Positions 8,726-9,578 of a stretch of 43,714 bases of DNA are shown piece by piece; positions within the stretch are counted from its first letter, which is position 1; the number at the start of each line of letters is the position of its first letter. Source of the stretch: a virus; UHGV virus genome UHGV-0175557, one strand, 5' to 3'. The notes under the pieces were generated by a model, which was not told where the DNA came from, did no database searches, and saw only the letters and a program-made list of their open reading frames with translations. Position numbers and translations under genes: made by a program.

Positions 8726-8756
8726 GGCGGGATTATTCCCGCCCGTTTTCTTTTTA
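8726..8756 (+). terminator. intrinsic terminator after terL (ggcggga-ttat-tcccgcc then ttttcttttt)
   Basis: 7-bp GC stem followed by T-run directly after terL stop. Confidence 0.65.
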
Positions 8757-8792
8757 ATTCTTGACAAATTACATTATAAATGTTTGTAAATT
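8751..8792 (+). promoter_or_regulatory. divergent copy of the conserved promoter motif (tttttaattcTTGACAaattaca), -10 unclear
   Basis: Matches the UP/-35/post-35 part of the family motif in plus orientation; no good -10 at 17 nt. Confidence 0.4.
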
Positions 8793-8820
8793 ATCTGTTA
8801 GATTAATGTAACACGTCTAT

Positions 8821-8874
8821 ACTCCTGTAGGTAACCAATCGGTTACAGTTAATTAACATTCTCTCACAGGAGTT
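8821..8874 (+). promoter_or_regulatory. 5'-UTR stem-loop that pairs the Shine-Dalgarno of the downstream gene (ACTCCTGT ... ACAGGAGT, inner palindrome GTAACCAATCGGTTAC)
   Basis: 8-bp inverted repeat 8821-8828/8867-8874; the 3' arm contains AGGAG, 5 nt before ATG 8880. Confidence 0.5.
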
Positions 8875-8879
8875 TCAAC

Positions 8880-9578
8880 ATGTCTGACATGACTTTAGTT
8901 CCCACTGGCGGTTTCGGCGGTGAAGCTGGCGCGGCTGCACTTGGTGGTGGTATCGGCGGTCTTATCGGTTCCTGGTTCGGTAACGGCTGGGGTGGTGCCG
9001 GTGGTTGGGGTGGTCGTGGTATTGGTGCTGCTGAAGGTGTTGTTGTTCAGAACTCTCTGGATACTAACGCTATTCTTCAGGCTATTAATGCGGCGTCACT
9101 GGCTAACATTCAGGGTCAGAATGGTACTAACCTGACTGTTGAACGCTCAGCAGCTTCTACCTATAACGGTCTGACCCAACAAAACACACAAAACCTGCTG
9201 GCAAACGTTCAAGGTTTTGCAGGTCTGAACACGCAGATTCAGCAGGGCACGAACACTGTGACCAATGCGATCTGTGCATCTGAAACTGCGGCACTGACTC
9301 GTTCTTTCCAGGCACAGTTAGCGGCTGAGAAGTGTTGCTGCGAAACCAACCTGAACATTGAACGTCAGGCGGAAGCAACTCGTGCACTGATCCGTGATCA
9401 GTTCGCACAGTCTCAGGCTGTTCTGATTTGTGACCTGAAATCTCAGATTCAAACCCGTGACTTCCAGTTGTCTCAATTGTCACAAACGTCTCAGTTGGCG
9501 TGCAAAATTAACCAGGTCGATCAGCTTATTAACTTCAAGTTGCCTACTCCGCAAACTCCACCGACTGGCTGCTGCTAA
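8880..9578 (+). CDS. Gly-rich / Gln-Asn-rich protein with CCC and C-terminal GCC cysteine clusters (232 aa)
   Basis: ATG 8880; N-terminal GGFGGEAGAAALGGGIGGLIGSWFGNGWGGAGGWGG; no family recognised. Confidence 0.6.
   Translation: MSDMTLVPTGGFGGEAGAAALGGGIGGLIGSWFGNGWGGAGGWGGRGIGAAEGVVVQNSLDTNAILQAINAASLANIQGQNGTNLTVERSAASTYNGLTQQNTQNLLANVQGFAGLNTQIQQGTNTVTNAICASETAALTRSFQAQLAAEKCCCETNLNIERQAEATRALIRDQFAQSQAVLICDLKSQIQTRDFQLSQLSQTSQLACKINQVDQLINFKLPTPQTPPTGCC

Follow-up and report, generated by a model that had tools for sequence, protein, structure and literature searches.

The stretch of DNA analysed here, referred to as the window, comprises the 43,714 nucleotides of UHGV virus genome UHGV-0175557 and belongs to a 9NA-like (Nonanavirus/Sashavirus) siphophage. 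Within it, the gene for a 232-aa protein, ORF1 (8880..9578), is preceded by a leader in which the Shine-Dalgarno (SD) sequence can pair with an upstream complement, and a second inverted repeat lies between the two pairing arms. This raises the question of what such a leader does for the expression of ORF1, and of what kind of gene it serves. All features described below lie on the + strand.

ORF1 is the first gene of a terminator-bounded cassette

A preliminary description of this region, made from the sequence alone, had proposed a gene for a 232-aa product here, and 8880..9578 does code for one. It had overlooked the context, in which the ORF1 gene stands first in a strictly colinear, terminator-bounded cassette of four genes (8880-10764). 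The left boundary is the intrinsic terminator of the upstream terL gene at 8726..8743 (a GGCGGGA/TCCCGCC stem and a T run), which was found by a terminator scan and is annotated at the same place in AVIO78A. The right boundary is an intrinsic terminator at 10937..10956 (an 8-bp GC stem and TTTTTT), and the annotations of Sasha, Sergei, and AVIO78A place a terminator there too. ORF1 is a full-length member of phrog_9288 (E = 3e-123), with phrog_16490 as a distant family. ORF2 (9629..9988, 119 aa) belongs to phrog_9157 (E = 5e-46), ORF3 (10005..10523, 172 aa) to phrog_8329 (E = 5e-97), and ORF4 (10510..10764, 84 aa), whose start overlaps the end of ORF3, to phrog_7239 (E = 1e-47). The earlier statement that no family is recognised is correct for annotated families, but ORF1 does have a place in phrog_9288, a large phage family that is uncharacterised. 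PHROG gives 'unknown function' for all four families and records neither their linkage into one cassette nor the shared leader.

For ORF2-4, no match in Pfam, NCBIfam, PADLOC, or PDB sequences exceeded the threshold, and no DNA-binding protein was found among the cassette products by the family searches. ORF2 has an N-terminal Asp/Glu run and His run, and its conserved C-terminal two-helix region is weakly similar to all-alpha NTP pyrophosphohydrolases (MazG-like). Among 11 members searched against Pfam, MazG was matched by 2 (best E = 3.7e-4) and PRA-PH by 3, all below the Pfam cut-offs; in the PDB, ORF2 matched 2p06 with E = 0.011, and of the metal-binding motifs EExxE...ExxD, the Asp of ExxD is not invariant in the alignment. 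ORF3 is the most conserved protein of the cassette. It is beta-rich, contains the near-invariant residues D34/D37/H44/C54/C65/H90/H110, and gave no match to known folds.

Between ORF1 and ORF2 lies a GC-rich hairpin, AAGCGCCUC-UGUAC-GGGGCGCUU (9589..9611; -14.8 kcal/mol, z = -4.4), which is a probable attenuator or 3' stabiliser. In the window, this hairpin has a 9-bp stem and just 3 U and was not called by the terminator scan; in Sasha, Sergei, and AVIO78A, the annotation gives it as a terminator. An AGCGCC..GGCGCU hairpin occupies the same junction in nearly all lineages examined, the exceptions being loci L047 and L010, and most of the other lineages have 4-6 U.

The cassette is mobile and dispensable

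ORF1-4 are colinear at ~40 loci. The cassette occurs in unrelated enterobacterial phages (9NA-like phages, Drexlerviridae, Queuovirinae, Segz_1, PY100, and eiAU), its place in the genome differing between them, and at least five different insertion contexts were found. It follows terL in 9NA-like phages, the coat gene in Segz_1, the lateral tail fibre genes in KarlJaspers and JenK1, and the J-like tail genes in eiAU, and in PY100 it forms an isolated rightward unit amid leftward, non-structural genes. T5-like phages carry only a remnant of the cassette, and distant gut-phage members retain ORF2- and ORF3-like partners. Phage 9NA has a 1,061-bp deletion, equivalent to 9016-10076 of the window; as this deletion lies inside the cassette, the cassette is dispensable. 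ORF1 is also truncated or split in AVIO78A, SeppeHuegi, and JakobBernoulli. The cassette is a mobile accessory unit of the moron type.

The leader contains a conserved RNA hairpin

The inner repeat of the leader (8831..8846) can fold as RNA into the hairpin GUAACC-AAUC-GGUUAC, with a free energy of -7.2 kcal/mol and a folding z of -6.0. This element had been described as a perfect 16-bp palindrome, which it is not: the reverse complement of GTAACCAATCGGTTAC is GTAACCGATTGGTTAC, and GTAACCAATCGGTTAC consists of a 6-bp stem (8831-8836/8841-8846) and the loop AATC, 4 nt long and without symmetry. The five core pairs are kept in all (100%) of 16 distinct sequences from three phage groups; two of the pairs show compensatory A-U to G-C changes, and two show G·U wobbles. 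The covariation score was reached in none of 500 shuffles, and sliding the 3' partners by 1-3 columns lowers the pairing to 21-43%. A covariance model of the hairpin finds one match per locus, always and only upstream of an ORF1-family gene, and the hairpin of 9NA, in which the cassette is dead, has a stem-breaking change. By this pattern of substitutions, the inner element is a conserved structured RNA hairpin. A function as a terminator was rejected because of the AT-rich stem and a 3' T run that occurs only in Hanrivervirus. The leader matched no Rfam family, and an Rfam match to mir-598 at 9662-9731 is spurious, since it lies far under the gathering score and in the Asp/Glu/His-coding repeat.

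A -10-like hexamer is found 6-7 nt ahead of the hairpin in every lineage. In the window this is TATACT (8818-8823), which together with CTGTTA (8795-8800) and a 17-nt spacer forms the candidate cassette promoter P2 (8795..8823), with a predicted transcription start at ~8830-8831. The consensus match of P2 is 10/12 in L031/32/43, 9/12 in eiAU, and 8/12 in the window, where the -35 is poor (3/6) and the total falls under the promoter-scan threshold. The 17-nt spacer length is kept in Sergei and 9NA, with 10 of the 17 spacer bases differing. P2 is predicted to be a sigma-70-type promoter of the cassette's own. Given the constant distance of 6-7 nt from the -10, the mRNA made from it probably begins with the hairpin, which may act there as a 5'-terminal stabiliser.

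Further upstream, TTGACA (8761-8766) is the -35 of a divergent copy of a repeated phage promoter motif, as noticed in the preliminary description. This copy, P1 (8756..8774), belongs to a 19-nt motif, AATTCTTGACnnATTACA, of which the window contains 6 copies versus 0.02 expected by chance. A TAnnnT -10 at 17-nt spacing accompanies five of the six and is missing only in P1, for which TGTAAA (8785-8790, at 18 nt) and TAAATT (8787-8792, at 20 nt) are the candidate -10s. The spacing from TTGACA to TGTAAA is shifted by 1 nt in Sergei and 9NA.

The Shine-Dalgarno sequence can be sequestered by an upstream arm

The 8-bp inverted repeat reported earlier is present: the anti-SD arm ACTCCTGT (8821..8828) is complementary to the SD-containing arm ACAGGAGT. 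The latter lies at 8866..8873 and its AGGAG at 8868-8872, 7 nt ahead of the ATG, both having first been placed one base too high. The anti-SD arm overlaps the -10 of P2 (TATACT) and the bases just 5' of the predicted start, and the same layout is found in eiAU, Hanrivervirus, and JenK1. RNA from 8818 to 8882 folds at -17.4 kcal/mol (z = -4.8), and none of 200 shuffles folds as well; RNA from 8797 to 8900 reaches -24.4 kcal/mol, and its SD is paired as well. A leader beginning at the hairpin leaves the SD unpaired with a probability of 0.40, versus 0.01 with 40 extra upstream nt. An altered version of the anti-SD arm for reporter design is ACAGGTGT.

Four lineages have anti-SD/SD helices of differing sequence at the same place, namely ACUCCUGU(G)/(C)ACAGGAGU in 9NA-like phages, CUCUUUGUG/CACAAAGAG in eiAU, CUCUUUG/CAAAGAG in a subset of Hanrivervirus, and GAUUCCCCA/UGGGGAAUC in JenK1-like phages, with a G·U variant in L039. 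The helix is lengthened to 9 bp in Sergei and 9NA. Within the 9NA-like clade both arms are nearly invariant, so covariation is visible only between clades, and a T-to-C change in PJ16 and L019 costs one pair. Several lineages have the hairpin and no anti-SD. A dependence of the anti-SD on co-directional upstream genes fails, since L031-34 and L043 have such genes yet lack it; Sasha has retained it downstream of an inverted endonuclease gene, and PY100, with divergent neighbours, has none. SD occlusion as first proposed gains support from the four-lineage comparison, but because the anti-SD overlaps the -10 and predicted start region of P2, it most likely is limited to RNA that enters from upstream and does not serve as a switch on the main mRNA.

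A model for self-contained expression of the cassette

We propose, with a probability of roughly 0.45, that the cassette is a self-contained, horizontally mobile operon following the scheme of T4 gene e, in which RNA from upstream is silent and RNA from its own promoter is active. The region 8726-10956 would then be a dispensable four-gene operon that travels with its own expression module. From the sequence, we infer that P2 (CTGTTA-N17-TATACT) would start transcription at ~8830, that its mRNA would open with the 6-bp hairpin (8831-8846) as a 5'-terminal stabiliser, and that ORF1 would be translationally silenced on longer RNA. A large share of transcripts would end at the GC-rich hairpin (9589-9611), giving abundant ORF1 and less ORF2-4. 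The anti-SD, lying just 5' of the predicted start and overlapping the -10, would be present only in RNA entering from upstream. Such RNA would come from P1, the degenerate copy of the phage promoter at 8761, or from terL read-through; P1 and terL are both co-directional with ORF1. On this long RNA, pairing of the anti-SD with the SD would enclose the hairpin in a structure of -17 kcal/mol, and ORF1 would stay untranslated. The expression of the cassette would in this way depend on its own promoter alone across many genomic contexts. Against the model, the terminator at 8726-8743 already restricts read-through, and P1, the sole obvious source of long RNA, has a poor -10. In addition, the insulation is not universal, as the anti-SD is absent from four Drexlerviridae lineages whose upstream genes are co-directional.

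The main mRNA could instead start from the TTGACA promoter (~8797). Both arms would then always be present and the SD would be shut by default, to be opened by a trans-acting protein, an RNA, temperature, or processing, with the inner repeat as the site of the factor. The -35/UP part of P1 faithfully copies the phage promoter motif, but the copy is without a TAnnnT -10 at 17 nt and its spacing is not conserved. The weak -35 of P2 in the window also speaks for a start at ~8797, as does the stable fold of RNA 8797-8900 with its paired SD; however, good promoters end 6-7 nt 5' of the hairpin in eiAU, L031/32/43, JenK1, and L022, and transcripts from these would exclude the anti-SD. The recurrence of anti-SD/SD pairs in four lineages requires some RNA to contain the 5' arm, whereas the lineages that have the hairpin without the anti-SD, and the lack of any candidate trans-factor among our findings, argue against a default lock on the main mRNA. 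We consider this explanation doubtful.

ORF1 is a codon-optimised protein with a long predicted helix

By the host-preferred codon fraction, an index using an E. coli preferred-codon list and not a calibrated CAI, ORF1 scores 0.68, the major head protein 0.71, and ORF2-4 score 0.42-0.48. The same ordering is found in 11 other lineages. ORF1 is by far the most codon-optimised gene of the cassette, level with the major head protein.

The Gly-rich, Cys-clustered composition noted earlier is confirmed by the counts (G 29, A 29, Q 26, T 21, N 18, C 8); of the cysteine clusters, CCC occupies residues 152-154 and GCC ends the protein. The protein begins with a conserved MSDMTLxP, followed by a Gly-rich, uncharged, weakly hydrophobic head (residues ~9-50), a long Q/N/T/A-rich helix with hendecad/heptad periodicity that carries the CCC motif (residues ~62-220), and a PTPxTPPTGCC tail. 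Indels between lineages are 7 and 18 (7+11) residues long and preserve the coiled-coil register. An AF2 model from a 27-sequence alignment has one 159-residue helix, and at pLDDT 60 it is too uncertain to be used for a fold search. ORF1 matched nothing above threshold in Pfam (best DUF6160, E = 0.12) or among PDB sequences (best Psb31, E = 0.013), and NCBIfam and PADLOC gave zero matches. With a Kyte-Doolittle mean of at least ~1.6 in a 19-residue window as the criterion, no classical transmembrane helix was found, the maximum being 1.14 at residues 16-34. At the same position, the distant homologues P0171 and P0198 carry the clearly hydrophobic segments LIGILLIAALF and WIPFVLILALL, so membrane association of ORF1 is still plausible. 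We infer that ORF1 may be an abundant, oligomeric, membrane-associating coiled-coil protein acting with ORF2-4. PJ16 annotates the protein as 'lateral tail fiber chaperone' and BASEL records annotate it as 'putative sugar-binding protein'; neither name is supported by the records or the BASEL papers.

ORF1 might also be an abundant, dispensable virion component, a decoration or fibre protein likened to the phi29 head fibres or T4 Hoc/Soc/fibritin, with ORF2-4 as assembly/attachment factors; such a role would fit either model of the leader. Its codon bias, equal to that of the major head protein, is in line with this, as are the long helix with its register-preserving indels, a weak match to phrog_15175 'virion structural protein' (E = 4.6e-4), and the loss of the cassette in 9NA, a long-propagated laboratory phage. 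The cassette adjoins late structural genes in the same orientation except in PY100, where its neighbours are leftward and non-structural, and its position is not syntenic with any single structural module. A predicted sigma-70 promoter of its own and translation predicted to be shielded from late read-through also fit a virion protein poorly. Among GenBank phage records, 0/177 name ORF1 as a virion protein; source names are all 'hypothetical', and a literature search found neither virion proteomes, including any covering ORF1, nor transcript maps of cassette-bearing phages. We regard a virion role as unlikely.

The inner repeat behaves as an RNA hairpin, and a DNA operator is very unlikely

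The preliminary description had offered a protein operator as a further function of the inner repeat, and a dimeric regulator binding at +1 of the cassette promoter would account for the fixed distance from the -10 and for the near-constant arm spacing (5-6 nt between the GTRRC and GYYRC cores). Co-evolution of operator and protein would also produce symmetric half-site changes. However, no lineage has a true palindrome, the central 4 nt being asymmetric, and in Sergei (GTAGCC/GGTTAC) and L024-28 (GTAAC/GTTGC) pairing is retained only via G·U, which breaks the symmetry of the DNA and spares the RNA helix. Distant lineages have swapped the whole stem for unrelated sequence and kept the hairpin, with CCACC/GGTGG in Segz_1, GCGAAC/GTTCGC in L047, and GTAGTC/GACTAC in PY100, and the cassette encodes no DNA-binding protein. 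The operator claim is therefore unsupported, and we hold an operator at this site to be very unlikely. In a check by eye, the spacing fitted neither LexA-type (CTGT-N8-ACAG) nor LacI-type operators.

That the SD-containing repeat is a functionless chance feature of an AT-rich leader is hardly credible: the helix has only 8 bp, its arms show no covariation within the 9NA-like clade, and PJ16 and L019 have lost a pair, but an exact complement of at least 8 nt to the SD region within the upstream 126 nt arose in only 4/500 shuffles, the 9-nt pairs of the Sergei and JenK1-type leaders were equalled by only 1-3/500, the folding z is -4.8, eiAU and Hanrivervirus have independent pairs of other sequence at the same place, and L039 keeps its pairing via G·U.

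Relation to known systems and implications

In T4 genes e, soc, 49, and I-TevI, the ribosome-binding site is sequestered on RNA initiated upstream and a promoter lies inside the 5' arm, as the passages on these genes in PMC3014915 describe; the gene e-type leaders are attributed there to McPheeters et al. 1986 (as cited in PMC3014915). The leader of the cassette likewise pairs its SD with a sequence 40-60 nt upstream and has a predicted promoter element overlapping the 5' arm, so that transcripts from this promoter cannot form the helix and translation would be tied to one promoter. Unlike in T4, the internal promoter is sigma-70-like and not T4 late, the active mRNA would begin with the enclosed hairpin, and the leader sits on a mobile cassette spread across unrelated phage families, only some of which have the pairing.

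The 5'-terminal stem-loops of the ompA leader type, associated with the names of Emory, Bouvet and Belasco (1992), reportedly protect E. coli mRNAs from RNase E. The cassette resembles this case in having a short stable hairpin that is conserved by structure, not by sequence, and is predicted to lie 0-2 nt from where a highly expressed mRNA begins; it differs in that its 5' end is predicted and its stem has only 5-6 bp.

Morons such as HK97 gp15 and lambda lom/bor are said, in work ascribed to Juhala et al. (2000) and Cumby et al. (2012), to be promoter-gene-terminator units between conserved genes. Like them, the cassette is flanked by terminators, has a predicted promoter of its own, is variably present in close relatives, is dispensable, and often stands where the tail gene block ends. 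Expression of morons is usually modest and comes from prophages, whereas the cassette has four genes instead of one, occurs in virulent phages, and is codon-optimised to the level of a capsid protein.

In architecture only, ORF1 recalls the phiX174 DNA pilot protein H, which assembles as a decamer into an alpha-helical tube (PMC7354561). In each protein, a weakly hydrophobic, Gly-rich segment at the N-terminus leads into a single very long helix, which is unusually rich in Gln/Asn and shows hendecad and heptad periodicity. H was not among the PDB-sequence profile matches of ORF1 at E up to 10; unlike H, ORF1 has Cys clusters and is dispensable and apparently abundant. A speculative and quite improbable extension of this likeness is that the cassette is an unrecognised accessory system of virulent enterobacterial siphophages in which ORF1, made in capsid-protein amounts, forms a membrane-inserted or envelope-spanning alpha-helical tube or filament. 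Assembly would proceed through the Gly-rich head and the Q/N-rich hendecad helix with a cysteine ring, ORF1 would have ORF2 (His-rich and MazG-like) and ORF3 (with a new fold) as its partners, and an H-protein-like conduit or a keratin-like scaffold would be candidate analogies. If this were true, the self-insulating leader would let the system work at any landing site.

The carriers of the cassette include BASEL phages (KarinMuster Bas82, KarlJaspers Bas06, DanielBernoulli, PaulSarasin, and others) and many Salmonella, Shigella, Yersinia, and Klebsiella phages proposed for therapy. The capsid-level codon bias of ORF1, together with the loss or breakage of the cassette in laboratory stocks, points to a function that matters in nature and not on lawns, which may lie in phage-phage competition, the host envelope, or lysis timing. 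The leader itself appears to be a compact, portable expression unit made up of a promoter, a 5' hairpin, an optional anti-SD, and a 3' hairpin. If the T4 gene e-type logic proposed here is true, a mobile phage gene would free itself in this way from the transcription of the recipient genome, and the leader could be reused as an insulating part in phage engineering.

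A mobile four-gene operon headed by ORF1

The 232-aa ORF1 (8880-9578) opens a four-gene operon that is widespread, mobile and dispensable and has its own conserved leader. The region matches the 9NA-like siphophages (Nonanavirus/Sashavirus), with ~97% identity over 8000-10600 to PJ16, BDX09P1 and the BASEL phage KarinMuster (Bas82). ORF1 lies downstream of the large terminase gene (terL, 6729-8717) and is followed by ORF2 (9629-9988), ORF3 (10005-10523) and ORF4 (10510-10764), while the portal and major head protein are encoded at 12324-13679 and 22608-23627. Intrinsic terminators at 8726-8743 and 10937-10956 bound this cassette. 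From the ORF4 stop to the terminator of the cassette (10765-10936), ~170 nt contain no conserved ORF; the 9NA annotation has a 54-aa gp15 in the matching stretch, and the cassette of KarlJaspers (Drexlerviridae) has no such spacer.

ORF1 belongs over its full length to phrog_9288, whose function is listed as unknown, and has no match in Pfam, NCBIfam, PADLOC or PDB sequences. Its homologues form 215 clusters at 90% identity, with 124 representatives at 50% identity, and are present in 177 GenBank phage records. At every readable locus (~40), homologues of ORF1, ORF2, ORF3 and ORF4 follow one another in this order, ORF3 being missing from one locus, and distant gut-metagenome members (<=30% identity) keep ORF2- and ORF3-like neighbours (hhalign probabilities 97.5% and 95%). 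The cassette lies 3' of terL in 9NA-like phages, 3' of the coat gene in Segz_1, 3' of the lateral tail fibre genes in Drexlerviridae and Queuovirinae, and 3' of J-like tail genes in eiAU-183; in PY100 it is an isolated rightward unit with leftward genes on both sides.

The cassette can be lost. In phage 9NA, a 1,061-bp deletion (window 9016-10076) joins ORF1 codon 45 out of frame to mid-ORF3 and leaves gp12 (63 aa) and gp13 (116 aa) as remnants (3843-4408 of its locus, L003), and split or truncated ORF1 has been deposited for AVIO78A, SeppeHuegi, JakobBernoulli and Fulano1. In T5-like Epseptimavirus phages all that is left is a broken remnant, adjacent to a gene that occupies what we take to be the position of the receptor-binding protein gene. 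In the T5-like Salmonella phage polluks (locus L006, 3700-4400), the leader (TATGCT, N6, GTAAT/GTTAC hairpin, SD) and a frameshifted ORF1 fragment remain, ORF2-4 are absent, and the remnant lies directly 3' of a 661-aa hypothetical gene, presumably that of the receptor-binding protein.

A conserved RNA hairpin in the leader

The sequence 5' of ORF1 was taken from 34 distinct loci. A core GTRRC...GYYRC hairpin is found 22-42 nt 5' of the ATG in 9NA-like phages, Queuovirinae and Drexlerviridae. Its five core pairs are paired in all 16 distinct sequences, with compensatory A-U to G-C changes at two pairs (GTAGC/GCTAC, GTGGC/GCCAC) and G·U intermediates at two (GTAGCC/GGTTAC in Sergei; GTAAC/GTTGC in L024-28). 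This covariation is reached by 0 of 500 shuffles, and sliding the 3' partners lowers the pairing from 85% to 21-43%. Hairpins of unrelated sequence occupy the same place in distant lineages (Segz_1, CCACC/GGTGG; locus L047, GCGAAC/GTTCGC; PY100, GTAGTC/GACTAC), with which we group eiAU, whose hairpin at this place is GTAAC/GTTAC. A covariance model of the hairpin gives one match per locus, always 5' of ORF1, and no other match within the window; the hairpin has no Rfam family. In 9NA, whose cassette is dead, the stem is broken by a G-to-C change. The preliminary description saw here a perfect 16-bp palindrome and a possible protein operator. The element is really a 6-bp stem (8831-8836/8841-8846) with an asymmetric loop, AATC, and the operator reading was mistaken: pairing kept through G·U and the lack of symmetry at the centre speak for a hairpin formed in RNA and against an operator in DNA.

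The deposited start of PY100 ORF29 is 45 nt too far upstream and crosses the leader hairpin (L061 3782-3830); the conserved MSDMILP start lies 3' of an AAGAGGA SD, at locus position 3827. The start codon in the window is itself inside a small inverted repeat (CATGT-CTG-ACATG, 8879-8891) formed by the conserved codons Met-Ser-Asp-Met, of which Met1 and Met4 are invariant across the ORF1 family; RNA structure, an alternative start and protein constraint are candidate reasons.

Predicted promoters upstream of ORF1

A -10-like hexamer (TATACT, CATACT, TATGCT, TAGAAT, CATAAT, TAAATT or TATTCT) ends 6-7 nt 5' of the hairpin stem in every lineage. Paired with its best -35 and scored out of 12, the hexamer gives 10/12 in L031, L032 and L043 (TTGTCA-N16-TAGAAT), 9/12 in eiAU (TTGGCA-N17-TATTCT), and 8/12 in JenK1, in L022 and in the window (CTGTTA-N17-TATACT, 8795-8823). 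Sergei and 9NA differ from the window at 10 of the 17 positions in this spacer and keep its length of 17, whereas the distance from TTGACA (8761-8766) to its nearest -10 candidate shifts by one base. The constant distance between hexamer and stem, the scores and the kept spacer length indicate that the cassette very probably has a sigma-70 promoter of its own, whose mRNA would begin with the hairpin as its first structure.

The TTGACA belongs to a 19-nt motif, TAAAATAATTCTTGACnnATTACA, with six copies in the window (8756, 12246(-), 14469(-), 16238(-), 19811(-) and 20111) against 0.02 expected. A TAnnnT -10 hexamer follows five of the copies at 17-18 nt, and at these five a gene starts ~25-35 nt past it. 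Because the copy at 8756 alone is without the hexamer, its earlier designation as a divergent copy is accurate. The set probably serves the phage as early or middle sigma-70 promoters, and the copy at 8756 has lost its -10. Directly downstream of the copy at 12246(-), a 77-aa ORF (11955-12188, - strand) starts with MSMYGNGSGFGGNGSGFG, a tandem GNGSGFG repeat, and has a CPCETC cysteine cluster; it is another small Gly-rich, Cys-containing protein of this phage. In Sasha, a 516-aa gene annotated by RefSeq as a homing endonuclease (L015 1234-2784, - strand) is inverted between terL and the cassette promoter; it is not present in the window.

Predicted occlusion of the SD by an upstream arm

The sequence ACTCCTGT at 8821-8828 (the anti-SD) is complementary to ACAGGAGT at 8866-8873, with AGGAG at 8868-8872; the 8-bp arms of the inverted repeat described earlier are real, and the 3' arm and AGGAG lie one base lower than claimed. 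When the upstream sequence is shuffled, 4 of 500 trials give a complement this long to the SD region, and RNA 8818-8882 folds with -17.4 kcal/mol (z = -4.8). In a leader beginning at the hairpin, the hairpin alone is stable, the whole-leader z is -0.7 and the SD is mostly accessible, with an unpaired probability of 0.40; with 40 nt further upstream, the SD is shut (0.01). Helices of different sequence pair the anti-SD and SD elsewhere, namely 9 bp in Sergei and 9NA, GATTCCCCA/TGGGGAATC in JenK1-type Nonagvirus (reached by 1-3 of 500 shuffles, and kept via a G·U in L039), CTCTTTGTG(T)/(A)CACAAAGAG (9-10 bp) in eiAU and CTCTTTG/CAAAGAG in a Hanrivervirus subset, and the guess of SD occlusion looks essentially correct. 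The leaders of four Drexlerviridae lineages have no anti-SD.

In 9NA-like, eiAU and Hanrivervirus leaders the short gap from the -10 to the hairpin is taken up by the anti-SD, which in JenK1 lies within the promoter spacer. At either place the cassette's own predicted promoter would not transcribe it. Selection appears to act on this 5' arm in several lineages, and some of the RNA made would then have to include it. In T4 genes e, soc, 49 and I-TevI, folding masks the ribosome-binding site of RNA that starts upstream, and translation takes place on RNA made by a promoter within the 5' arm (PMC3014915, section 29); the layout predicted for the cassette leader is the same, its anti-SD overlapping the candidate promoter region. 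On a gene e-type reading, to which we assign a probability of roughly 0.45, the anti-SD would mask the ORF1 ribosome-binding site in upstream-initiated RNA, RNA from the cassette's own promoter, which would not include the anti-SD, would be translated, and behind terminase, coat or tail-fibre genes ORF1 synthesis would depend on that promoter only. Less probable is the reading of the preliminary description, in which the helix would act as a regulated switch in RNA that starts at the TTGACA promoter. The gene e-type reading would make the control of ORF1 a variation on an established scheme.

Expression and properties of the cassette proteins

Almost all lineages examined have a GC-rich hairpin (AGCGCC...GGCGCT) 3' of ORF1, and in most of them it comes with 4-6 U. 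The copy in the window (9589-9611) folds with -14.8 kcal/mol and has 3 U; relatives' records label the hairpin as a terminator. The fraction of host-preferred codons is 0.68 in ORF1, 0.71 in the major head protein and 0.42-0.48 in ORF2-4, on a standard E. coli set, for which the ranking is meaningful and the absolute values are not. ORF1 ranks second in the window, behind the major head protein alone, and all 29 of its Gly codons are GGT or GGC. It is also the most biased cassette gene in 11 of 11 other lineages tested, and in Segz_1 its bias equals that of the coat and decoration genes. Together, the 5' hairpin, the 3' hairpin and the capsid-level codon bias speak for an ORF1 mRNA that is abundant and largely monocistronic.

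The composition reported for ORF1 holds (G 29, A 29, Q 26, T 21, N 18, C 8), as do CCC (residues 152-154) and the GCC C-terminus. CCC, an LCD motif and a T/P-rich tail are conserved in the family, whereas the terminal CC is not, and the N-terminal octapeptide M-S/T-D-M-x-L-x-P is near-invariant even in remote members. Residues 16-45 are uncharged and Gly/Ala/Leu/Ile/Trp-rich. ORF1 does not reach the level of a classical transmembrane helix (peak Kyte-Doolittle mean 1.14); in remote homologues the corresponding segments are clearly hydrophobic, which makes membrane association plausible. An AF2 model shows a disordered head and a single helix, 62-220 (low confidence). Judged from its hydrophobic residues at 4-4-3 spacing, indels of 7 and 18 (7+11) residues between lineages and a ~22-residue QGFAGLN repeat multiplied in remote members, the rod behaves as a coiled coil in hendecad and heptad register.

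The H pilot protein of phiX174 has a Gly-rich head and a long Q/N-rich hendecad/heptad helix and forms a decameric tube (PMC7354561). With a Gly-rich head and long helix in both, it is the closest architecture to ORF1 known to us, but the two are unrelated in sequence, ORF1 is a dispensable and apparently abundant protein, and the likeness is only a lead. A fair, though rather unlikely, alternative is that ORF1 decorates the virion or forms a fibre on it without being essential; nothing was found in databases and papers that names ORF1 a virion protein.

ORF2 has Asp/Glu and His runs (DDDDDEEED and HHHHHYHHGHH at its start, 9629-9740) and a weakly MazG-like C-terminal region; its His-rich stretch varies widely in length and position by lineage, with none in L041 and L010. 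This repeat-coding DNA also gives a spurious, sub-threshold Rfam mir-598 match at 9662-9731(-). ORF3 is the best-conserved protein of the cassette; its Asp/His/Cys set is nearly invariant, and no known fold could be detected in it. The small ORF4 has no informative match. The main fact, missed by the preliminary description, is that ORF1 heads a mobile four-gene operon, and the function of this cassette is readily testable in available BASEL phages.
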